Origin: an uncultured Spirochaetota bacterium
GTDB taxonomy: Bacteria > Spirochaetota > Brevinematia > Brevinematales > JAOACQ01
Assembly (NCBI GenBank): GCA_963783575.1
Contig: CAWAOD010000005.1
Coordinates: 96,001 to 160,000, forward strand
DNA length: 64,000 nucleotides
Direction: 5' to 3'
Shown here: positions 13,857 to 32,654 of the stretch, one piece after another
Layout: every line of letters begins with the position of its first letter
How positions within the stretch are numbered: position 1 is the first letter of the stretch
Translations under genes and position numbers: made by a program
The notes under the pieces: model-generated
What the model saw: only the letters and a program-made list of their open reading frames with translations
Told to the model about the DNA's origin: nothing
Databases searched by the model: none

Positions 13857-14131
13857 TTATAAGAAATTCTTGTGCAATTTTTCAAGAACTTTCCTGAAAA
13901 AACTCCATTCCTCTTCGGAGATTCCATCAATCGCTTTCTCAAATAGAACCTTTGTGATAGACTGGAATTCGGTAATAATCCCTTTCCCCTTTTCTGTCAG
14001 GGACAGAAAGCTTGAGCGGTAATCTGACTCGTTCTTTCTCTGCTGAACATAATCAAATTTCTCCAGCTTGGAAACCAGTGTTGTAACCGTCGAGCGTTCC
14101 CTGTTGATTTTATCGGTCACCTCCGACAGGG
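13857..14131 (-). pseudogene. MarR family regulator, 5' part removed at the IS21 left end
   Basis: TLSEVTDKINRERSTVTTLVSKLEK...LSLTEKG wHTH; homology stops at the IS terminus at 14132. Confidence 0.8.
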
Positions 14132-14246
14132 TGGAAATGATAAACTAATTTACCAGGGTAGCAATAAATGAAATTCCCATACCTGTCACAAACAGATTTC
14201 CCATAGAGAAGCTTGAAGATTACCTTTAATGAAAATTCATTAAAGG

Positions 14247-15809
14247 ATGGCAGGAATGGTGAAAAATATTATGTATCAGGACATAAAAAAACTGAAACTT
14301 TTGGGGAAAAGTAAAAATGGTGTATCCCGGGAACTGTCAATAGATATTAAGACAGTCCGGAAATATTGGACTATGAACGATGCTGAATACCAGAAAAGCC
14401 TGATGGAATTCTCTTTCCGTGAAAAAGAATTCGAAGGAATAAAAACAGATATATTGAAAGTATATGCAAAGAATGATTACATCCGGCTGAATATGTCTGC
14501 TTTGTATGACTATTTATTGGAGGTAAAAGGCAAACTACCGGCGAATGAAAATACGATGAGGAATTTCGTACATTACCTGATTGAAAGCGGGCAGCTTACC
14601 TTGAATGAAAAGCGACGGTATTACACAAAAGTGCCGGACATGCCATATGGAAAGCAGCTCCAGCTTGATTTCGGTCAATATACCGACAGATATGGCAGAA
14701 GGTATTACATATTTGCCGCGGTGTTATCCGCCAGTCGTTTTAAGTATGCGGCCCTCCAGGAGAGGCCATTCCGGACAGAAGACCTGATCAATCATCTGTT
14801 GGACTGTTTCGCATATATGGGCGGGATACCGCATGAACTTGTCATCGATCAGGACTGCACGATGGTTGCGAGTGAGAACTCAAGCGATATCATCTACACG
14901 AAAGACTTTCAGTATTTCATCGGGGAAATGGGTCTTAAAATGTATGTGTGCCGACCTGCTGACCCGGAAAGTAAGGGAAAGATTGAAAACGTAGTCAAAT
15001 TCATCAAGCACGGTTTCTTCTCAGTCCGGGAGTTCAACAGTTTAATGGAAGCGGAAGAAAGCCTGATGAAATGGCTGGAAAGAAAAGCCAACGGGAGAAT
15101 ATCCCAGGCTACAATGAAAATACCACTGATAGAGATTGAAACGGAAAGACCATATCTCCAATCTGTCAGGAATTCGATATTCCGTAAAGACAGGATAGGA
15201 GCAAGGGAAGAGCGCAGTGTAAGCGATAAATGCCGGATCGCAGTTGATGCAAGCCAGTATGATATTCCCGAAAAATACAGGAACGGTTCGGTGGACATCT
15301 ACAAGACGGGCAGTCGGCTTTTTGTCTTTGACAGGATAACGGGAGAGCAAATCGCCGAATACCGGCTTTCAGTGATTCCGGGGCAGATTGTAACCAACAG
15401 GGCAATGATCCGGGAAATGGGAAAGACTGTGCAGTTATTGAAAGAAGAAGTAAGCGGGTACTTTGATATTCCCGGCTGGAAGGATTTTCTTGAATGTAAT
15501 TTCAGGAAGTTCAATCGTTATGTAAGGGACCAATGTCTTTCCGGAAGAAAATACTTCAGGGACAAGATAATTGATACCGGGAAGCTTACACAAGCGATCT
15601 CAAACTGCCTGGAGAGTGATAGTTATTCCATGAAGGATTTGTGGGATAATTACCTGAACTGTTTTATAACAGAAAAGGCAGAAATACCCTTGAATGTAGA
15701 AAAGATTGTCAGGCCTTCAGTGAATCCTGAACACTATCTTGAAGTAGCTAAATCAGACATCGGGAAATACCAGAGTTTCTGTGACTCCATCGGGGGCCGG
15801 CAATGTTGA
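14247..15809 (+). CDS. istA: IS21 transposase IstA
   Basis: QLDFG, GGIPHELVIDQD, ESKGKIENVVKFIK DDE motifs. Confidence 0.93.
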   Translation: MAGMVKNIMYQDIKKLKLLGKSKNGVSRELSIDIKTVRKYWTMNDAEYQKSLMEFSFREKEFEGIKTDILKVYAKNDYIRLNMSALYDYLLEVKGKLPANENTMRNFVHYLIESGQLTLNEKRRYYTKVPDMPYGKQLQLDFGQYTDRYGRRYYIFAAVLSASRFKYAALQERPFRTEDLINHLLDCFAYMGGIPHELVIDQDCTMVASENSSDIIYTKDFQYFIGEMGLKMYVCRPADPESKGKIENVVKFIKHGFFSVREFNSLMEAEESLMKWLERKANGRISQATMKIPLIEIETERPYLQSVRNSIFRKDRIGAREERSVSDKCRIAVDASQYDIPEKYRNGSVDIYKTGSRLFVFDRITGEQIAEYRLSVIPGQIVTNRAMIREMGKTVQLLKEEVSGYFDIPGWKDFLECNFRKFNRYVRDQCLSGRKYFRDKIIDTGKLTQAISNCLESDSYSMKDLWDNYLNCFITEKAEIPLNVEKIVRPSVNPEHYLEVAKSDIGKYQSFCDSIGGRQC

Positions 15810-16552
15810 AGATAAGAGAACAAATCATAACTGCGCTTACAACTCTCGGGTTGAAGGGTATGATAAAACGGATTGATGAGGAAATTGGTGAGGCTGAAAA
15901 GGCAAAAGAGTCTTATCTGAGTTTTCTGCAGAGGCTGCTTTCTCTGGAATTGAATTATAGAGTGGAAAAACGTTTTCAGCGGAATATGGCAGGAGCACAC
16001 TTCCCGGTCCGCAAAGATGTGGAAGGTTTTAATTTTGAAAAAGTGAATGGAATATCTAAAATGGATGTTTCACAGCTATTGGATTTCTGCTGGATTGATA
16101 ATCATCATAACCTGTTGTTCTTTGGGTCTCCGGGGCTGGGGAAAACGCATCTGGCAATTAGTATCGGAATCCGGGCAGTTGAAAAGGGATATATTGTCTG
16201 CTTTGAAAGGATGACTACTCTCATTAAGTTTCTGAAAACGGCGGACATCCAGAGAAGCTCTGCTTTCAGGCTGAACCGGATGATGAAGTCACACTTATTA
16301 ATCATTGATGAGATAGGTTACACACCTATCGAAAAGAAGGAGGCAAATCTATTCTTTAGTCTTGTAAGTGAATTGTATGAAAAGACATCAATTGTGATAA
16401 CATCGAATAAGGGATTTCAGGATTGGGCTGAAATGATGGGAGACCCGATTATGACAACCGCTCTTCTGGATAGGCTTTTACATCATTCAAATATTTATAA
16501 CTTGAGCGGAGAATCTTACAGAATACAAAATTTGAATAAGGAGGTTGAGTAA
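15803..16552 (+). CDS. istB: IS21 helper ATPase IstB
   Basis: GSPGLGKTHLA Walker A, LLIIDEIGY, TALLDRLLHH, GESYR. Confidence 0.95.
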   Translation: MLKIREQIITALTTLGLKGMIKRIDEEIGEAEKAKESYLSFLQRLLSLELNYRVEKRFQRNMAGAHFPVRKDVEGFNFEKVNGISKMDVSQLLDFCWIDNHHNLLFFGSPGLGKTHLAISIGIRAVEKGYIVCFERMTTLIKFLKTADIQRSSAFRLNRMMKSHLLIIDEIGYTPIEKKEANLFFSLVSELYEKTSIVITSNKGFQDWAEMMGDPIMTTALLDRLLHHSNIYNLSGESYRIQNLNKEVE

Positions 16553-16570
16553 CCATTCTTTGCCTCCTCA

Positions 16571-16687
16571 CTATGGGAAATACTCACGTGGAAGGTATGG
16601 GGAAAACTCTTGTGAAGCATATGGGAAATACTCTTGTGGAAGGGGTGGGAAATTACCCGAGCGCAGATATGGGAAAAACTCTTGACA
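16571..16687 (+). repeat. Five subterminal transposase-binding repeats of the IS21 right end
   Basis: Imperfect (A)TGGGAAA(T/A)ACTC units about 24 bp apart; inverted TTCCCATA copies near 14171-14205. Confidence 0.75.
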
Positions 16688-16693
16688 TTTCCA

Positions 16694-16743
16694 AGGCGTA
16701 GCAAAGCGTAGCCGAGCACCACAGCGCATGTACGCTGTTAGCT
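16694..16743 (-). other. Truncated attC-like recombination site cut by IS21
   Basis: Minus strand AGCTAAC-AGCGTACATGCGCTGTGGTGC..., homologous to the start of the complete site at 18464-18312. Confidence 0.7.
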
Positions 16744-16797
16744 GAAGGGCTTGGCAACGTCGGTATAAAAACGGCAGGACGCCGTTTGAAGCGTAAA

Positions 16798-17250
16798 TTA
16801 ATACTTCCATTTTTTAAAATCAGTAATTATTTGTTGATATAATCTATTAGCAACTTTAGGAAGTTCTTTTTTAATTGCTTCTTGAGGTGGAGTTATAAAT
16901 TGTAAATCTCTTTTTGTCATATTATATAATGATTTTATTTCTTCCATTAAATATATAACTTTTTTAGAAAAATACGGATAATATTCTATAAATGAATATA
17001 ATTCTTTTCTACAATTATATATAAAATCAGAATAAACACTAGCATTATCAGGCCATGTAATACCTTCCAAACCTTCTACAAATATTAATAATTTTTTATA
17101 TGCATTAATTTTATCTTTATCATGTAATTTTATTATTTCTAAATTTTTTTGAGTAAATGAAGTAATAACTCCTCCAATGAATACACCCAATAGTGTAAAA
17201 AAACCAAAAATAATATTTTTATCAATTAATATATCCATATACATCTCCAT
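16798..17250 (-). CDS. Hypothetical cassette protein with N-terminal transmembrane helix
   Basis: 150-aa ORF, FGFFTLLGVFIGGVITSF, very AT-rich, lies between attC-like sites. Confidence 0.7.
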   Translation of the reverse strand: MEMYMDILIDKNIIFGFFTLLGVFIGGVITSFTQKNLEIIKLHDKDKINAYKKLLIFVEGLEGITWPDNASVYSDFIYNCRKELYSFIEYYPYFSKKVIYLMEEIKSLYNMTKRDLQFITPPQEAIKKELPKVANRLYQQIITDFKKWKY

Positions 17251-17279
17251 TCCTGAATAATTTTATTATAAAATGATAT

Positions 17280-18194
17280 TTATCTATTAATTTTTAGATC
17301 ATTAAAAGTATGTACATTATTTAAATCATAAAAATATATGGTTTTTAATGTTTTTTTAGAAGAATAGTAATCAGTGTATATCAATTTGTATTGAAATTTT
17401 AGTGACTTATCAAAATAGATATATTCAGTCTCTGTTGCACCAGGTAAAATGTTTATTTCATATAATCTATTATATGATATTGTAGAAGATTTTGTCAGAC
17501 CCTCAATCAGAAAAAACTGATTTTTAGGATTAATTTTAGTAATATATATGCTGTTCGTGTTTACAATTTTAAGTTTCATTTCCATATTATCTGAATAATC
17601 ATCAATTATATTACTCACAATGCTTATTGAGCTTAAAGTATTATAATTATTATTAATAGAATATAGATTAAATCTGTTATATAGGTCATAGCAAAAAATT
17701 GATAAACTGGAAATATATTTTGAATCTGGATATTGATTTTGCAATTCAATCACAGTATTTTCCAAATTAAAATAATCAATATATTTTATAATGTTTGTAG
17801 ATTTATCCAATATATCAAAAATAAAAAATAATTTAGATAGTAGAATATTGTTGGTTATTAGATTTAATCTATTTGTGTAAAGTGAATTTGAGGTAAAGTC
17901 TTTGTTAATATCTTTAAGAAATCCGCTGTAAAATGCAGTAATATACATAATATCATCAAGAATATTTGTATTATCAATATTATTATTTATAAATCCATTT
18001 ATTTCATAAAGGTTTAAGATATAATTACTGATATTACTAATTGTATCTATATCATTTATGGAAGTATTTGTAATTATAGAAAATAATTTCATTAAATTTG
18101 ATTCTAAAAAGTTTTTATTAATATCTCCAAAAATATCTGAACAAAATAGGGTTAATAAGATAATAATAATAGTTTTCATTATTCTTTTATACAT
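17280..18194 (-). CDS. Hypothetical secreted Asn/Ile-rich cassette protein
   Basis: AGGAGG RBS before MYKRIMKTIIIILLTLFC; long ORF in extremely AT-rich DNA. Confidence 0.7.
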   Translation of the reverse strand: MYKRIMKTIIIILLTLFCSDIFGDINKNFLESNLMKLFSIITNTSINDIDTISNISNYILNLYEINGFINNNIDNTNILDDIMYITAFYSGFLKDINKDFTSNSLYTNRLNLITNNILLSKLFFIFDILDKSTNIIKYIDYFNLENTVIELQNQYPDSKYISSLSIFCYDLYNRFNLYSINNNYNTLSSISIVSNIIDDYSDNMEMKLKIVNTNSIYITKINPKNQFFLIEGLTKSSTISYNRLYEINILPGATETEYIYFDKSLKFQYKLIYTDYYSSKKTLKTIYFYDLNNVHTFNDLKINR

Positions 18195-18311
18195 GTTATC
18201 CCTCCTGTATTTCAAATCACTAAATAAAAATAACGTTTTGTGTTTAATATCATTTCCAGTCCGCCACGATGGCGGACATTATTGTAATATTATAGCATTG
18301 CCAAGCTTTTC

Positions 18312-18464
18312 AGCTAACGTACATGTGTATGCGACGTTGCCAGGTCCGTAAGGACTGGCGTGAGCTTTGCCGCCGCAAAGCGAATGCCAGAGGGCAATGT
18401 GGCGAAGCCCGAGGAGCGCCCGCAGTTTACGAGGACGCACCGCAGCGCATACACAACGTTATGT
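18312..18464 (-). other. attC-like integron cassette recombination site (153 bp)
   Basis: Minus strand ACATAAC...GTTAGCT core sites; inner IR TGTGTATGCG/CGCATACACA; GC-rich multi-stem interior in an AT-rich context. Confidence 0.8.
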
Positions 18465-18545
18465 GCAGTGCTGGCGGTCGATTTTCATATAACCTTTTCT
18501 TTATCATATTTCATTTCTACATGAAAATTAATTATTGAAAATCGA

Positions 18546-18958
18546 GGCTTTAACCTGCCGCAATGTAATTTTAAATAAAATTTATAATAAAATAATGAAA
18601 ATTTTGACTATGACTTTGGTCACATTTTTATATCATTATATACAGTATAGAATAAAAACACAAAATATTTGAAAAAAAATGAAAAATAACCAGGCAAAAA
18701 TTTGCGTTGACTCTCCAATTTTGCTATCATACTAATCAGGAATTTGTCTCTGAAAACAGGCTTTCTCATCAAATTCCTGATTAGTATGACAATCATCTCA
18801 ATGATTGCTGGTTATTATTCATTTTTTCTCTTTTCCATTTGTGTTTTCTTATAAAAATGTAATTAATCTATCAAAATTTTCATTTTACCATAATTACATT
18901 GCGGGAGATCGTTTCATATATCTCCGATATATGATGCGTATCGTTACAGGTTAAAGCC
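18546..18958. repeat. Long imperfect inverted repeat (~410 nt) filling an ORF-less cassette; candidate structured RNA/ssDNA
   Basis: Colinear paired arms 18546-57/18947-58, 18558-70/18892-904, 18594-607/18871-84, 18622-32/18850-60 and a perfect 20-bp core 18727-46/18770-89. Confidence 0.85.
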
Positions 18959-18970
18959 AGCCAGCATTGC

Positions 18971-19042
18971 ATATAACTCGATATATACGCATTGCGTATA
19001 TTACTCTAATTTCGGAGTGATATGCGCACTATGTATATTACT
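18971..19042 (-). other. attI-like primary recombination site
   Basis: Minus-strand G|TTATAT core at 18977 with no attC hairpin; two 23-bp direct repeats (18983-19005, 19020-19042; 19/23 identical). Confidence 0.6.
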
Positions 19043-19125
19043 TCAAAATACTTGTAAAATACAAACTTATTAAAAAACTTAGTAATATTATAACAAATAT
19101 TCTGCCGATCAACGGATATATTTCT

Positions 19126-19155
19126 ATTATAGCATTTTAATTTATAGTTTGTCAA
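19126..19155 (-). promoter_or_regulatory. Sigma70 promoter directed into the cassette array (Pc-like)
   Basis: Minus strand TTGACA-18 bp-TATAAT with extended -10 TG. Confidence 0.7.
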
Positions 19156-19381: not shown

Positions 19382-19455
<74 letters not shown>

Positions 19456-19458
19456 ATG

Positions 19459-21009
19459 TTATTTTTTGAAAAGTTTTTCTTCCTCATCCTGAACAATTGA
19501 AGAGGCGCTGTTTAACAGGTTACCGATCTGGTTCATAATATTATAGTATTTTGAATGAAGCGTATTTAATGAAAAAAGTCTCCTGACATTGGTACGGAAT
19601 TGCTGAAATGTTCCGTATTTGTTGATTTTATCGGGTTCATTCGAATCCGATGAAATAAGTTTTTTAATTTCTTCGATAAATCTCCTTCCAAGGTCTATCC
19701 TGATACCCTCCACCCTGAATGGATAATCACGGATAATTTTATTAATACGGTCATAAAGCCAATATGTGGAATCAACTATCATCTGATCCTGTACCCGTGG
19801 GTCTGAAGCGTCATTTACGATGATCTTACCGTTAAAAACGAAATTTGAAGTATTTGTTCTTCTTTTTGAGGATTCCTTATTGAATCCTTCAAATCCATTC
19901 TTAAAATTGGTGACCATGCCTTCTTTGCTGTATTCAGGAGACAGGTCGCTTTCCATGCTGATAAGAAATTTATCCAGAAGGTTCAGGATATCCAGCGCGG
20001 GCCTGCATTCTATTTTCGGCCAAAATTTTTCCTCTGAAATTTCTTTCTGTTTTGGTTCCTCTTTTATTTCCTCTTTATTTGGTTCCTCTTCTTTTATTTC
20101 TCTTTTGAATAGATTAAGTATCCAATCAAAAATCTTAGATAATAAAAAGGTTTCCGGCTGTTCCTGATCCAGAAGCCTGAATTCACCAGCTTCAATCGAT
20201 ATGATTTTACCTATTGATAACGCGGCCGGCTTTAATAAATCTATTGTAAAGCAAAATACCGCATCTCTTAAGATTTCCAGTAATTTATTGATAAGAGATA
20301 AAATCGGAGGATATTTTTCCAGTTGAATGGCAGCCAGGCCCATTTCGGAAGCAGTTTCCCGGAAACCGGATAAAAAATAGTAAAGTCCGCTGATAAACGA
20401 AATTAAATGGCCTGATTTCAATTGAGGAAGTTTTATGCTTAAAGCGTAATCATATAATTCACACACCAATATACATATTGAATGAAGTTTTTCAAGGTCC
20501 CGGAAATAGCTGACCAGCTGCTCAAGTTTATGTGCCGATTCCTTGGAATTATCGCTTCCCAGAGAATTGAAATAAATTTGAGTCTCGACTTTAACCGTTT
20601 CCAATAAAATTGTGACCGGTTCAATGGGTTTACCGATAATATTTAGAAAATAGGTTTGTTCCGGTGTCTTTATATCTTTAAAATACCCGATCAACAGCGA
20701 GCGGTCTATAAAATCGCCGGGAGTCAGCTTCGTAAACTGGGAGAATTGAAAACTGCCTTGGTCGATAAGAGGGGGGTATTTTTTTTTATGCTTACGATAA
20801 TCCAGTTTAAAAAAGAAATTCTTGAATATTAAAAACCGGTTCTCCTGGAAGAATAATTTTTTATAATATTCGAAAGAAAGATGATTGATAATTTTATGAG
20901 CCTCTTTAGTCAGCTTCAGTTCGTTATCAAAACTGAAAAATTGAAACTTGGCCTCATCCAGATTTATTTTTAAAATTTCATAGGGAGTTTCTTTCGGGCT
21001 TTCCGTCAT
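19459..21009 (-). CDS. Hypothetical protein
   Basis: Long ORF; probable start MTESPK after AAGGAAGG; no recognisable domain. Confidence 0.7.
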   Translation of the reverse strand: MTESPKETPYEILKINLDEAKFQFFSFDNELKLTKEAHKIINHLSFEYYKKLFFQENRFLIFKNFFFKLDYRKHKKKYPPLIDQGSFQFSQFTKLTPGDFIDRSLLIGYFKDIKTPEQTYFLNIIGKPIEPVTILLETVKVETQIYFNSLGSDNSKESAHKLEQLVSYFRDLEKLHSICILVCELYDYALSIKLPQLKSGHLISFISGLYYFLSGFRETASEMGLAAIQLEKYPPILSLINKLLEILRDAVFCFTIDLLKPAALSIGKIISIEAGEFRLLDQEQPETFLLSKIFDWILNLFKREIKEEEPNKEEIKEEPKQKEISEEKFWPKIECRPALDILNLLDKFLISMESDLSPEYSKEGMVTNFKNGFEGFNKESSKRRTNTSNFVFNGKIIVNDASDPRVQDQMIVDSTYWLYDRINKIIRDYPFRVEGIRIDLGRRFIEEIKKLISSDSNEPDKINKYGTFQQFRTNVRRLFSLNTLHSKYYNIMNQIGNLLNSASSIVQDEEEKLFKK

Positions 21010-21209
21010 ATAAAAACATCCTTCCTTGAAAAGGAAAATAAATAAGAGGAACTTTCCTGGTTTTTGAACTGCCCAAATATTATTTTCATTCATTATACAC
21101 TATTCGGAAATAAAAACAAATAAATTTTTTTATATTTTTTTGTCATTTTTTATTAGTTTAATTATTATTGTTTTATAGTCAATAAAAGTATTGGCTAAAA
21201 GGAAGAATA

Positions 21210-25221: not shown

Positions 25222-26886
25222 TTGAATATAGATATACGTACGCTCACCTTAATATTAAGTATTACAGATGCGCTTCTGGTTGGCGTATTTTTTTTCCAGT
25301 TTATATTAAATAATAACTTTCGGGGTCAAGGCTGGTGGGTTTTGGGGCTGGCCTCTCTGTCCATCGGCGTTTTTTTATTACTGATGCGTGATTTTATTAC
25401 CATCAGGTTTATTTATATTATACTCGCAAATTCAATGATTATTATGGGCGGGATATTTCTCTATATCGGTATTATGCGGTTTCTCGAAAAAAAAGAAAAC
25501 CTCCGGCTAATTTTATCAGTAATGATCTTGTTTCTATCATCATATTTTTATTTTACTTATGTGAACGATAATATATCTGTCAGGACTGGATTTCTGTCCG
25601 CCGCTATTGCTATTCTGGCATTATTCGGAGCGCAGAGTCTTTTAACATATAAAACACGATATATTAAAGCTTCCGCCTTCTTCAACGCGGTTGTTTTTCT
25701 ATCGTACGGATGTTTAATCGTGATCCGGGCTGTAGTAGTGCTGACCTATATTCCTGTAACCAACATTTTTACGCCGGGCCTGATGCAGACGGCTTTTTTT
25801 TTGGGAACGTTTATCTACCATATCATTTTAACATTTGGGCTTATTATTATGGTCAACCAGCGGTTAAATGGGGAAATGCGGGAAGCAAGGAATGAACAGC
25901 GGCTCATTTTCAACAGCAGCCCGGGTGCAGCTCTTATAACCCGCCTGAGTGATGGTATTTATGTAGACAGCAATGATAAATTCACCGAATTGACAGGTTA
26001 TAAAAGGGAAGAATTGGTTGGAACATCGAGTCTGGAAATCAATTTCTGGGAAAAACCGGCCGAAAGAGATATATTTACCAATGAATTGCGTAAAAATGGA
26101 TTTTGCAAAAATATGGAAGCCAGTCTTCATCGGAAAGACGGCATGGTCACTACTGCAATTATGTCTGCGAATATTATTACTCTTCAGGGCATTCCGCATA
26201 TCTTGAGCATTACGAGCGACATTTCGGAAAGGAAGCGGGAAGAAGAACAGATACAATCCCTCCTTAAGGACAAAGAATTACTGCTGAAAGAAGTTCATCA
26301 TCGCGTTAAAAACAATATGAATACTATAAACAGTCTCCTTTATCTGCAGTCGAATAATTTAAAAGAGCCTTCAGCCGTCGCCGCATTGCATGACGCAGCA
26401 AGCCGTGTTCAAAGTATGGCAATACTCTATGATAAACTTTACCAGTCCTCAAACTTTAAATCTATGTCTATCAGCAATTATCTTACACCTTTGATCGAAG
26501 ATATTGTTAGTTATTTTCCTAAAAACATCCCTGTTAAAATAGAAAAAAATATTGGTGATTTTCAGCTTCCGGCTGAAACCTTATTTCCGCTTGGAATCAT
26601 CACAAATGAACTTATTACAAATATTATGAAGTATGCGTTCGCTGGCAGAGATGACCGCTTGATTACGGTCTCCGCTGAACAAAACAAGGATCAAACCAAA
26701 ATCATAATCAAAGATAATGGAATAGGAATTTCCAAGGATTTCAACCCTAAAAATTTTAATCCGGAAAACTCAACCGGTTTCGGGTTAAAACTTGTCGGAT
26801 TATTAACCAAACAATTGGAAGGTACTTTACGGATAGAATCAGACAATGGGACAAAATTTATTCTGGAATTTGATACTCCAAAATAA
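25222..26886 (+). CDS. Membrane-bound PAS sensor histidine kinase (HisKA_2 type)
   Basis: Multiple TMs, PAS, LLKEVHHRVKNN H-box, NELITN, DNGIG, GFGL. Confidence 0.9.
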   Translation: MNIDIRTLTLILSITDALLVGVFFFQFILNNNFRGQGWWVLGLASLSIGVFLLLMRDFITIRFIYIILANSMIIMGGIFLYIGIMRFLEKKENLRLILSVMILFLSSYFYFTYVNDNISVRTGFLSAAIAILALFGAQSLLTYKTRYIKASAFFNAVVFLSYGCLIVIRAVVVLTYIPVTNIFTPGLMQTAFFLGTFIYHIILTFGLIIMVNQRLNGEMREARNEQRLIFNSSPGAALITRLSDGIYVDSNDKFTELTGYKREELVGTSSLEINFWEKPAERDIFTNELRKNGFCKNMEASLHRKDGMVTTAIMSANIITLQGIPHILSITSDISERKREEEQIQSLLKDKELLLKEVHHRVKNNMNTINSLLYLQSNNLKEPSAVAALHDAASRVQSMAILYDKLYQSSNFKSMSISNYLTPLIEDIVSYFPKNIPVKIEKNIGDFQLPAETLFPLGIITNELITNIMKYAFAGRDDRLITVSAEQNKDQTKIIIKDNGIGISKDFNPKNFNPENSTGFGLKLVGLLTKQLEGTLRIESDNGTKFILEFDTPK

Positions 26887-26952
26887 TGGCACGGCTCATA
26901 AAAACCGGTGGTTTTGTTTACTGGTTTTAATATTGAGTAATTACACAATTAC

Positions 26953-28440
26953 TTATTCAAGTGCGGCTTCATGCTGTTTACTGTAGATTCTCTTAATAGT
27001 CCTGATAAATTCATCGCCTTCAATAAGATTTGTAATTTTCAATAAGAAATGGGTCACCGCATCTTCCCTTACGCCGGAAATGCTGTATATTTCAACATTC
27101 TGAGGTTTGACTTCATAGCTGTTCATTATCACTTCCATATCGGTCAATTTACTGAAAGGCACAGGCTCAATATGACGGTAAAAAACCACAAAAAAAACAC
27201 CCTTTGAATATACATAAAAGTCCTGGTGTTTATACATCAGGTTGAAATGATGCCGCGACAGAATTTTATTGCAGACGGAATCGAAGTTTTTATCCTCGTT
27301 TTCCTCGTTGCTTGTAAAATAATTTGCCAGGTAGCTGTGTGGAATAATTTTTTTAAATCTTTCATACATTATTCCGGAATCTTTGTAATCGGGTTTCATC
27401 ATATAAACCCTTTCAAAATTCTTAAGGGCTGAGAATTCCTCGCCTGTATTCCACAAAAGATTTGCGTATAAATACATTAGCTCGGTTTTTGTCTCCTCGC
27501 TTGACGGTTTGGACAGGTAATCCGAGACATAACGTATTCCAGTGTTATAGTCCTTAATTTTAATGAATAAGTTTATAATGGCGATCTGGCAGTTTTCCTT
27601 GATTTTTACCGGGTTATTATTTTCTTCCTGGTTGTTGATATCTGTTGTGCCGGTTTTAATTTCTTCCTGCCAATCCCTTGCAAGAATATTCTGATATGTT
27701 TCCTTGGCTTCGCGGTATTTTTTAAGGCTTTCAAGAGTTTTTGCCTTATAGTAAAATACCTCAATATTATTGGAATCGTATTTTTCAAGCAATTCGAATT
27801 GTTTTAACGCGCTACCGTGGCTCCCGTTCTCGAAAAGTATTTTTCCATACAGAAACCTGGCATCAATCAGCCCGCCTCTTTTACTTAAAAGTTTTTCAAG
27901 ATATTCCCTGGCTTTTTTAAGATTTTTGTTTTTGTATTGGATCCGGGCAAGGTCATATAATGTTTCGCAATGGTTTTCATCATGTTCCAGAAGCATCAGG
28001 TAATATGACAGCGCTTCTTTCGGCTTGTCCAGGAGACTGTAAATCCTGGCGATGTGAAGCAGGATTGATATATATAATTTCTTGTTGTTTACGGCAAGGA
28101 CGCTTGCCTCAATATAATATTTCAGCGCTAACGAAAGGGATTCCGTGGATTCGTAAGCCTGGGCCAGATAATATAAAACAAAGAGCAGGTCGGCTTTCTG
28201 GCGGGCCGGTTTGTTACCAATATAATCTTTAGCCGTTTTTATTACCTCGGAATACTGCTTGTTTCTTAATTTCCGTCCAAGCTGCCTTTCAATGGATTGC
28301 ATAAAGAACATTGATCTTATTACAATAAATATAATTCCTGCAAGCAGTAATGCGATTATGGAAAAAATTATTATCAGAAGATCGTCTTCAATCTTTAATT
28401 GACTGAGCGCGGCCGGCAAACCGGATATATTTTCATTCAT
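26953..28440 (-). CDS. Membrane-anchored tetratricopeptide repeat protein
   Basis: N-terminal TM and multiple TPR-like helical repeats. Confidence 0.8.
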   Translation of the reverse strand: MNENISGLPAALSQLKIEDDLLIIIFSIIALLLAGIIFIVIRSMFFMQSIERQLGRKLRNKQYSEVIKTAKDYIGNKPARQKADLLFVLYYLAQAYESTESLSLALKYYIEASVLAVNNKKLYISILLHIARIYSLLDKPKEALSYYLMLLEHDENHCETLYDLARIQYKNKNLKKAREYLEKLLSKRGGLIDARFLYGKILFENGSHGSALKQFELLEKYDSNNIEVFYYKAKTLESLKKYREAKETYQNILARDWQEEIKTGTTDINNQEENNNPVKIKENCQIAIINLFIKIKDYNTGIRYVSDYLSKPSSEETKTELMYLYANLLWNTGEEFSALKNFERVYMMKPDYKDSGIMYERFKKIIPHSYLANYFTSNEENEDKNFDSVCNKILSRHHFNLMYKHQDFYVYSKGVFFVVFYRHIEPVPFSKLTDMEVIMNSYEVKPQNVEIYSISGVREDAVTHFLLKITNLIEGDEFIRTIKRIYSKQHEAALE

Positions 28441-29893: not shown

Positions 29894-31622
29894 TTTTCAA
29901 CCCCTCAATATTCTTAATAAGCCGGCCAATCTTTTTTTCAATCCTTGCTTTATCAAACTTTTCATATCTCTCATAAATCACTTTTTCTTTCATAAAATAA
30001 CGGTTTAAAAAAATCCACTCCGATGATTCTATCGCTGGAAATAACGAAGGATCAATTTTTAATTTACGAATAAAACCGCCAAGCCGGAAAACTCCCATGA
30101 TAATTTTATCGATTTTATTGAAATCTATCAAATGGTTGTCAAATAGTTTTTTTTTGTCTATCAATGGATAATTTTTGCACATTTCATTTACATAGTAATC
30201 AAGGTCTTCATGACGGAAATTTGTTATTACAGCGCCTGTTTTTGTAGCATTAACCAGATCGAGATGAGGATTAACACTGTGAATATTTTTTGCTGACTCT
30301 TCGAACCACCCTTTGAAATTGTTTAAAACAAAATCAGTATAAATTCCGCCTTCCACAGGGATGTTATTATCTGTTCCATCCGTTAAAGAATATTTTCTTG
30401 AGCGTAGAATTTTTAAAAAAACACTTTCCAGTGGAGTCAAACGGTTGTTCTTCTGTAAAATGCGGTAAAAATGCGATGTCGACGGCGAATGAGAAGTTTT
30501 GTATGAATAGGCCAGGTCCTGCCCGACCAGGATTATTTCTTTTCCACCGATTGTATAGGCAAAATGAAAACTTGACGTGGAAACCGACCCTCCCGATTCG
30601 ACATCTCCAAGCCGGATCCCCCCGTACGATTCGATCCAATTGACAAGTTCGCTCTTTATGAGAAAGGAATTTCCGCTGTAATCAAAATCCAGATGGGCCG
30701 TTGTCGCTATATATTTATTAATTTTTTTCCGGTTTTCATGCTTGTTGCATTCATCAAAATATGAGGGAAGTGATGTATTTACAACAATATCATATATCAG
30801 GTTTGTTTTTGAAATATATTTACTGTCGATAAGTGAAAAGTCACCCAGGTTATATACCTGCGAATCCAGCGAATAGATGAAATCTGGGATTATCCCGGCC
30901 TCAAAAAGAGGCAGAACAGCCGTGTCTACAGAGATTGTTATGCAATAAGGGCAGGCTCTTTTTATATTATCCAGTGAAAATTTTAATGATGGCCCTGCTG
31001 ATATAACCATTACAGGGGCATTTATTTTTTTAAAATCCATCTGGCTGACAGGGTAGGATGTTTTCAAATTGGGAATATTTTTTAAGATATTTATAAACCA
31101 AATCTCCTCAAAATTCAGTCTTGTGGTGAAATCCCCCAGTTTGACTTTAAGAAGCCTTTCTATCCTGTCTTCAAATGGTGTGTATGTTTCTTTATCATAT
31201 GCTCCTCTCAGGATAAGAGTTTTGATATTCTTAAAATTCTGTATTTCGATTAAAGAAAAAATTGTATCGAGCTTATCGGGCCGGTCGGTTGGTGAAATAT
31301 AAAAATAATTCGGCGGGATTTGATAGATTTTTTGAAAAAAAATATGAATATTCGGATTCAGTTCGATAATTATGATATTCTGAAATCCCTCTTTTTCAAG
31401 GATTTCAAGGTGGTAGCCGAAACCGGCACCAAGAATTATGATAAGCGTTTTATCTTTATCTAGAGAAAATAAAGAATTCACAAGTCTTAAGGCTTCCTTT
31501 CCCGGAGAATAGGAACTATGGACAGGCTTTCCTTGAACCCTGGGATAATAAAGTCCGTCTTCAGCCATAAATATTTCCGGGCTTATCTCCGAAAGATCCT
31601 TTAAAGCCCTGTAATTTATCAT
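29880..31622 (-). CDS. Motility-associated factor (MAF/DUF115) glycosyltransferase-like protein
   Basis: VHSSYSP, GAGFGYHL, ISAGPSL, GGSVS, LVGQDLAY motifs. Confidence 0.8.
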   Translation of the reverse strand: MINYRALKDLSEISPEIFMAEDGLYYPRVQGKPVHSSYSPGKEALRLVNSLFSLDKDKTLIIILGAGFGYHLEILEKEGFQNIIIIELNPNIHIFFQKIYQIPPNYFYISPTDRPDKLDTIFSLIEIQNFKNIKTLILRGAYDKETYTPFEDRIERLLKVKLGDFTTRLNFEEIWFINILKNIPNLKTSYPVSQMDFKKINAPVMVISAGPSLKFSLDNIKRACPYCITISVDTAVLPLFEAGIIPDFIYSLDSQVYNLGDFSLIDSKYISKTNLIYDIVVNTSLPSYFDECNKHENRKKINKYIATTAHLDFDYSGNSFLIKSELVNWIESYGGIRLGDVESGGSVSTSSFHFAYTIGGKEIILVGQDLAYSYKTSHSPSTSHFYRILQKNNRLTPLESVFLKILRSRKYSLTDGTDNNIPVEGGIYTDFVLNNFKGWFEESAKNIHSVNPHLDLVNATKTGAVITNFRHEDLDYYVNEMCKNYPLIDKKKLFDNHLIDFNKIDKIIMGVFRLGGFIRKLKIDPSLFPAIESSEWIFLNRYFMKEKVIYERYEKFDKARIEKKIGRLIKNIEGLKNARG

Positions 31623-31654
31623 AAATTCTTATCCTAACATTTAGCAAATGCCGA

Positions 31655-32212
31655 TTATATCGGCAGAATTAACGTTACGTTTATTCCAATCAAAGCGCTG
31701 ATAAAACCCAGTACCACGCCGGCCAGAACATCTGAAGGATAATGAAGGCCGAGATAAATTCTTGAAAATGCTATAAATGAAGCTATGATTAGCATCGGAA
31801 TAAAAAGTACCGGGTAAAAATAATAAAATACGAATACTATACCGAATGCGCCGGCCGTATGCCCTGAAGGGAATGAAAATTTATCAGGCGGGGCTATAAC
31901 ATTGGAAATATCTTCAAACTTAACAAACGGCCTTTGCCTGCTGAAAATATGCTTAATTATAGTTTGAAGAAGAACTTGGGTAATGGAAGTAATAGTCAGC
32001 GCCAGGCCGCTGTAGATATCGATTGCCAGGAATATGACACAAAGGATGAACCAAACCAAACCATCACCCATCCTGGACATAAACTTCATAAATGTTGTAA
32101 AGGATTTAATCCTTCTGTTGGAAAAAAATTGAACAAAATTTTTATCTAAAAAACGCCATCGGATTTTTCTTCTAATTTTTCCTTTTATGGCAATTTTTTC
32201 CCTTCTGCTCAA
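31655..32212 (-). CDS. PAP2 family phosphatase
   Basis: KHIFSRQRP, SFPSGH, SRIYLGLHYPSDV. Confidence 0.9.
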   Translation of the reverse strand: MSRREKIAIKGKIRRKIRWRFLDKNFVQFFSNRRIKSFTTFMKFMSRMGDGLVWFILCVIFLAIDIYSGLALTITSITQVLLQTIIKHIFSRQRPFVKFEDISNVIAPPDKFSFPSGHTAGAFGIVFVFYYFYPVLFIPMLIIASFIAFSRIYLGLHYPSDVLAGVVLGFISALIGINVTLILPI

Positions 32213-32222
32213 ATGCTGCTCC

Positions 32223-32654
32223 TTAATTATTTTTTGTTATATAATCTTCAGCGTTTTCCGGTATTTTTATATTTTTAACCAGAAAGTCCGGGGCTTTGAC
32301 TATTTTTCTAGTTTCACGGGAAATAAACACATGTTCAGTAAAACCAAGGCAAATTAATTGATTTTCATTTCTGAAAAGCCGGTAATCGATTTTGATTCTT
32401 GGACCGCTTAATTTTGTTACGGCGGATTGTATAAGAATATCATCATCGTAAAAAGAAGGCGCTATATATTTTGCGAATGCTTTTGTAACTGGCAGGATAA
32501 CGCCGGTCTCCTCAAGGTTTTTATATGTGATTCCGGATTCTCTTAAAAGCTCAGTTCTGCCGATTTCCATCCATATAAAATAATTGGCATAGTATACAAC
32601 GCCCATTTGATCTGTTTCGGCGTATCTAACCCTTATATTTGTCTTATTTGTCAT
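32223..32654 (-). CDS. YbgC/FadM family acyl-CoA thioesterase
   Basis: RVRYAETDQMGVVYYANYFIWMEIGR. Confidence 0.9.
   Translation of the reverse strand: MTNKTNIRVRYAETDQMGVVYYANYFIWMEIGRTELLRESGITYKNLEETGVILPVTKAFAKYIAPSFYDDDILIQSAVTKLSGPRIKIDYRLFRNENQLICLGFTEHVFISRETRKIVKAPDFLVKNIKIPENAEDYITKNN

Follow-up and report, generated by a model that had tools for sequence, protein, structure and literature searches.

How a set of gene cassettes can be gathered behind a promoter where no integrase is encoded is the question raised by a locus in the genome of an uncultured Spirochaetota bacterium (here G000; 4.9 Mb, 18 contigs, 90% complete). The locus lies in a window of 64,000 nucleotides, the whole stretch that was analysed (C5:96001-160000). 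An earlier reading, made from the sequence alone, had described on its minus strand a promoter, an attI site, cassette 1, a 153-nt attC, cassette 2 with two ORFs and a truncated attC, with about 230 bp between promoter and tRNA-Arg and no tyrosine recombinase in the window. All these coordinates were confirmed (Table 1), and the distance from the promoter to the 5' end of the divergent tRNA-Arg(CCT) gene was measured as 226 nt. In fact, a profile search with PF00589 found no recombinase in C5:96001-160000 (15 matches genome-wide). With one whole and one truncated attC and no recombinase in 64 kb, the locus can be classified as a CALIN, i.e., at least two attC sites with no intI nearby.

Table 1. 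Parts of the cassette platform and its neighbours, in positions of the 64,000-nt window.
Feature	Positions	Strand	Remarks
MarR-family gene, C-terminal half	13857..14131	-	N-terminal half on contig C10, next to another IS21 copy
IS21-family element	14132..16693	+	istA 14247-15809, istB 15803-16552; about a dozen close genome copies
attC2 5' arm (R'' + L'')	16694..16743	-	R'' AGCTAAC at 16743-16737; cut by IS21
Cassette 2 ORF b, 150 aa	16798..17250	-	no family above cut-off
Cassette 2 ORF a, 304 aa	17280..18194	-	hydrophobic N-terminus (by eye); no family found
attC1, 153 nt	18312..18464	-	branched, atypical spacer geometry (from folding)
Cassette 1, gene-less	18318..18976	-	body 18977-18458 predicted to fold as one long branched hairpin
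attI-type site	18975..19041	-	tandem imperfect palindromes 19038-19020 and 19001-18983, then crossover G|TT at 18977/18976
Short palindrome CCG-N5-CGG	19105..19115	-	just 3' of promoter; common to most family copies
Putative Pc, sigma70-type	19126..19155	-	TTGACA-18-TATAAT with extended -10 TG; 12/12 consensus; member of 13-copy genome family
tRNA-Arg(CCT)	19382..19455	+	divergent neighbour outside the element; 5' end at 19382

In both cassettes, start and far end are complementary at 16 of 18 nt (0/100 shuffles), and for cassette 1 the match at 20 nt is 17/20 (0/200 shuffles); the complementarity of cassette start and R'' noticed earlier over 7 nt is therefore real and longer. The first attC folds with z values of -4.5 and -4.4 on its two strands, and none of 200 shuffles folded as well on either strand. 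The promoter by itself is unremarkable, since 116 perfect promoters of the window type are present in G000. The proteins of cassette 2 yielded nothing usable from NCBIfam, Pfam or Atlas (best Atlas score 0.81), and Rfam matched tRNAs only. Moreover, the tRNA-Arg gene lies where the earlier reading had placed it, but it is an incidental neighbour: the platform stands on its 5' side without the duplicated end or integrase of a tRNA-integrated island, none of four relatives has a platform at tRNA-Arg(CCT), and among the promoter copies of G000 only that of the window adjoins a tRNA. Beyond the gene, the homology of window positions 19459-21093 with a same-genus genome (L108) stops exactly at the tRNA-Arg 3' end, which is a synteny break.

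We searched G000 for further copies by similarity to the promoter-attI segment and kept 13 of 16 matches, the three without the downstream motif being dropped. An attI-type G|TT lies 122–412 nt downstream of the promoter in 10 of the 13 copies and no attI is present in the other three. As a result, ten integrase-less platforms including that of the window were obtained (seven clear, three decayed), that is, nine further promoter and attI copies in favour of the satellite integron suggested by the sequence-only reading. Their neighbours are unrelated, with best matches to leuD, asd, transketolase (tkt), smc and spore photoproduct lyase, of which only asd is above cut-off. In leave-one-out scoring, seven of the ten attI sites reached 24.7–42 against a shuffled-genome maximum of 17.9, and the other three (-0.8 to 3.3) are no better than shuffled DNA, which counts against a distributed system. 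An eleventh attI is found right after the stop codon of a co-oriented tyrosine recombinase gene (C5:457129-458190) at the head of the main array; this cognate gene is 342 kb from the window, so that intI is not adjacent to attI at our locus as in a canonical integron. The last 45 nt of the window attI are identical to those at C9:382286 (45/45) and differ at one position from the integrase-linked attI (44/45), and another platform matches that of the window at 92% over 189 nt. At G|TT, where unrelated cassettes join as in canonical attI sites, the similarity of all 11 attI copies ends; identity to the window copy is 21–45/45 nt upstream of this point and 14–25/42 downstream. The same layout is present 3' of the integrases of relatives. 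The promoter of the module can be taken as a putative cassette-driving Pc, judging from its perfect consensus and its retention across copies that had been selected by similarity to it. A search with the attI pattern gave no viral match and four short metagenome contigs, none of them a close strain.

This homology contradicts an origin of the locus as a CALIN formed by cassette insertion at a chance attG behind an ordinary promoter, because the window site so closely matches an integrase-linked attI and another platform. Insertion at attG is established for IntI, as presented in 10.1101/2022.09.11.507474, perfect promoters are common in G000, and a few minimal G|TT starts do occur near unrelated promoters or inside IS DNA; we nevertheless regard this origin as scarcely credible for the window. 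At two such minimal sites, C16:33463 and C16:32451 (minus), TCGA|GTT with a cassette-type start stands no more than about 30 nt behind a perfect promoter; an attC to match was not found, and the sites may be platforms reduced in size or attG insertions. Three further cassette-type starts, at GA|GTT, are those at C13:208478, C13:214027 and C12:18574 (plus); in both C13 cases the start falls a little way into IS1182-like end DNA, a possible trace of recombinase activity after IS invasion.

The recombinase next to the eleventh attI is the sole member of its family in G000, with 61% identity to the enzyme of a relative (G011), all others reaching 27–32%. The gene is split over three frames by two frameshifts in the assembly, and one DNA run covers 162 nt of it and neither frameshift. 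In the assembly check, 5 of 43 conserved genes (48.5 kb) were flagged and four IS21 copies were gap-free over 2,562 nt; as the assembly is apparently accurate, the break is probably real, and the gene is probably a pseudogene. G000 is 90% complete, so another integrase may be missing from the assembly. The intact integrases of relatives have 348–351 aa with PF13495 and PF00589, and their best match is NF040815, whose cut-off is exceeded in two of the three and narrowly missed by the third (216 vs 220), while the TIGR02249 scores of 212–219 bits are below the cut-off of 265. Across the additional (I2) domain they have 24 residues vs 66 in IntI4 (2a3v), i.e., they are about 42 shorter, and without this domain the enzyme is not a canonical IntI. 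The best PDB match is IntI4 (E 8.7e-41), level with the XerA-type 4a8e (E 4.5e-40), and with the XerA-type the alignment runs from end to end; compared with IntI and XerA references, the NF040815-type recombinase has an extra N-terminal segment of about 80 aa. The IntI-like recombinase expected elsewhere in the genome is thus present, with its own attI nearly identical to that of the window, but it lacks the additional domain, whose helix is described in PMC7790495 as docking the extrahelical bases of attC. Five tandem tyrosine recombinase pairs, putatively RIT-like, were seen at C5:3402-4858, 15009-16465 and 30933-32380 and at C15:6573-8020 and 26288-27747, with attC-like hairpins nearby (C5:24783, C15:22742, C15:3415).

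From these data, the window locus is probably a satellite dock of a distributed integron-like system served in trans. In this family attI lies in the direction of transcription of the recombinase gene, and a promoter, in the linked copies that show one, is placed between stop codon and attI; promoter and attI therefore make up a non-coding module of about 120–410 nt which could exist apart from the gene, and its copies are found next to housekeeping genes of unrelated kinds. Cassette circles whose attC is folded on the bottom strand would be inserted at G|TT by the recombinase encoded elsewhere and expressed from the module promoter. Service in trans, as the earlier reading supposed, thus agrees with a cognate recombinase and its near-identical attI, but with two frameshifts it belongs probably to the past and not to the present; the missing I2 domain and the frameshifts together make the network probably inert today. 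As IS21 and IS1182 elements break up the arrays, it would be frozen in its current state. The likeliest ways in which the module was copied are duplication of whole integrons with subsequent gene loss, or ectopic exchange at intergenic repeats. At its left, the module showed no GTT-type boundary. In 10.1101/2022.09.11.507474, IntI1 is reported not to recombine attI1 with genomic sites to any significant extent, and spread of the module by integrase-driven attI insertion into the genome is therefore unlikely.

Footprints of recombination were found throughout G000. Many more attC sites are present in the genome, so the absence of other attC copies, which the sequence-only reading had named as grounds for abandoning it, does not apply; their lengths of 153–253 nt accord with the long branched sites it had described, and their spacers are asymmetric and partly paired. 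Generic attC scans were noisy, with most of 37 candidates and 39 of 62 lying outside arrays and being dropped. Among 23 array sites, hand-picked from the 62 candidates, 12 need a one-base bulge and 11 need none. The outer-stem mismatches comprise 33 bottom-strand G.T, 3 top-strand and 16 others, and a bottom-strand wobble bias is what is expected of attC sites; bottom-strand folding is indicated here as a signature in the sequence, by 33 vs 3 wobbles and the fold of attC1. Complementary cassette ends of 13–17/18 nt, the start core complementing its own R'' as in canonical cassettes, occur at 24 of 35 junctions (attI 6/11, attC 18/24), and several of the failing junctions are IS-interrupted or decayed stretches. 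Solo attI sites passed the cassette-end test in 5 of 10 cases at 18 nt and 6 of 10 at 20 nt, which counts against the distributed reading. In addition, a two-cassette block of 4,156 nt, 97.4% identical, is common to the C9:382286 satellite and the main array. Its left end lies 2 nt before G|TT behind different attC arms, and its right end lies not at a crossover but after an IS1182 copy, which is again a point against that reading.

These cassette ends are left unexplained if the platforms are copies of a promoter repeat that homologous recombination, acting on intergenic repeats and IS elements, has scattered over the genome with attI and cassettes as passengers, no site-specific recombination being needed. 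Several observations would suit such a repeat: the three promoter copies without attI head accessory genes, many platforms lie behind intergenic repeat members that also occur without a platform, with upstream and spacer blocks shared mosaically, and IS21-linked rearrangement is evident at the window locus. However, the point of divergence is one and the same G|TT in each of the 11 attI copies, homologous recombination does not account for first-cassette starts that match their own far ends, and the window copy has none of the upstream repeats, and we hold this explanation to be quite improbable. Hairpin repeats and a 150-nt element (about 20 copies, 91–97% alike) are found upstream of many platforms and elsewhere in G000, e.g., at C9:381773 and C4:27583.

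Relatives bear on the distributed reading from another side. A recombinase homolog of at least 48% identity is present in 6 of 11 family genomes, and solo copies were found in all three relatives of other genera that were examined for their own attI and arrays (G004, G005 and G011), all with intact integrases; tblastn detected no integrase in these solo loci. In integrase-linked copies of G004 and G011:C2 the promoter lies between stop codon and attI, and a promoter that can lie after the gene would allow promoter and attI to stand alone. G004 has, moreover, a promoter and attI inside the array, at 5.7 kb along it; its solo platform, which diverges from ppdK, keeps an intact cassette chain. 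The solo attI of G005, after bioA, is 100% identical over 67 nt to the gene-linked attI and has a different first cassette. G011 contains three identical integrase and attI copies, i.e., whole integrons, and a diverged fourth integrase with promoter and attI, whose first cassette matches that of the solo site at 99.3% over 585 nt, the solo site having been found by a matrix scan of selected regions; in the same genome, L085:4354-4750 and L086 have a first cassette without an ORF of at least 90 aa, common to solo and integrase-linked attI. The promoter sequences differ among genera. The window promoter module was not convincingly found in five relatives, and attI queries gave nothing clear in G001 (57% complete), G002, G003 and G006–G010. 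Between G001 and G000, of the same genus, a 315-aa cassette protein is 97.5% identical (L088 and the satellite array C16:114964-115908), and several other orthologs are 72–79% identical.

The whole integrons of G011, and an integrase 3' stub ahead of attI at L073, indicate that duplication plus deletion does occur. They fit a further explanation, in which each platform descends from a complete integron: the cassettes were taken up in cis, the integrase gene then disappeared, and no insertion in trans took place. The G000 arrays are IS-riddled and the integrase broken, which is in keeping with such relics, and gene loss is the standard account of CALINs in 10.1101/030866 and 10.1101/2022.09.11.507474. 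Against it, protein and DNA searches found no integrase remnant near any of the 10 satellites, so ten clean deletions would be required; the solo copies share a promoter module which is absent from the G000 integrase-linked copy; and the solo attI of G005 has a cassette different from that of its gene-linked twin. We therefore think it unlikely that the platforms are such relics, and return to a system served in trans.

The short array of the window is due to IS21 insertion and not to design. The left end of this IS21 splits the MarR gene, the other half of which flanks the C10 copy with the same 5-nt duplication, and the other end of the C10 copy abuts an array of about seven attC sites without a platform. 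The window platform may once have headed a longer array, now separated from it by exchange between IS21 copies or by misassembly; a simple reciprocal exchange with C10 was rejected, as the attC arms do not pair. IS21 copies often lie within attC (window 14132-16693, C9:127559, C4:18071, C10:73162), the attC at C10:79041 includes a sequence almost the same as the IS21 right end, and in G005 (L080) an attC is interrupted by a very similar IS21 terminus. Elements of the IS1182 family (NF033551) stand directly after the attC R'' AAC, e.g., at C5:474567, C9:386225, C10:75675 and C16:117672; of 13 left ends of one type, 12 come after AAC, the right end supplies a new R''-like GCTCAAC, and similar insertions are present in G011 arrays. 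Contigs C7 and C17 have a GC content of 52% and 49% vs about 37% elsewhere in G000 and are possibly contamination or foreign DNA.

No ORF of cassette 1, read on its strand, exceeds 58 aa. The cassette folds as one branched hairpin of about 520 nt (z -14.8), and no strand preference appeared when both strands were folded. A homolog occupies the first position in the integrase-linked array of G005 (z -8.8), and 32 of 123 pairs change on both sides in the two-sequence consensus of the predicted structure, which is suggestive of covariation. It has no Rfam match and no strong promoter match; its motif has one exact-match genome record (L041) among the species genomes, and the cassette is present in 2 of 43 class genomes, its own included. 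A structured RNA or a transcription-damping element are our guesses for its role.

Taken further, the data may point to a second integron-like capture class, in which an I2-less Xer-type recombinase serves promoter and attI docks across the genome, many first-position cassettes are expressed at once, many CALINs of such lineages are live satellites, and cassette 1 is kept in first position by selection, as a structured RNA or ssDNA element with a function; we offer this tentatively, as a proposal somewhat nearer to doubt than to belief. In the integron model, one attI and one Pc serve each integrase, which limits expression to the first few cassettes, and attC recombination depends above all on I2. 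With multi-copy docks in four genera, the single-slot limit would fall away, and integrase-less arrays would have another origin. Clean cassette footprints beside an I2-less enzyme provide a natural test of how single-stranded attC recombination arose, and cassette 1 offers a specific conserved structure on which the open question of the function of gene-less cassettes can be studied. The intact integrases and matching solo sites of relatives make both trans service and I2-less recombination testable.

Among known systems, this one resembles a reverse integron or a CALIN, and lacks two canonical features, the adjacent intI and the I2 domain. In our searches of a mostly non-subscription literature, we found no published description of multi-copy chromosomal promoter and attI modules or of I2-less cassette integrases. 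The reverse integrons of Treponema, as described in PMC3607928 and PMC6557892, are alike in a recombinase directed towards attI, an array downstream, the G|TT and a gene-less first cassette. They have one attI per integron in the account of PMC3607928, whereas G000 has about ten further promoter and attI copies, and they differ from a recombinase without the IntI insertion and from branched attC sites of 153–253 nt. The PF13495 and PF00589 architecture is common to our family recombinase, VchIntIA (2a3v)/TIGR02249 and the NF040815 XerA-like enzymes. CALINs and SALINs, as presented in 10.1101/030866, 10.1101/2022.09.11.507474 and PMC9668308, share attC-bounded cassettes with no integrase nearby and the possible action of IntI in trans. 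In these accounts CALINs are defined by attC only and ascribed to gene loss, rearrangement or attG insertion, but the G000 arrays keep a homologous attI and a promoter of their own; IntegronFinder, according to 10.1101/030866, seeks attI of classes 1–3 only, so such attI sites would be missed. Gene-less promoter cassettes (10.1101/2023.11.21.568050, PMC6557892) are alike in being ORF-less cassettes within an array, but the entire length of cassette 1 is one conserved hairpin that shows compensatory changes and lacks a strong promoter match, and the platform itself, which ends in attI and not in attC, is not a cassette. Finally, in usual integrons Pc lies within intI (PMC6557892), whereas with the recombinase family described here the promoter can lie after the gene.
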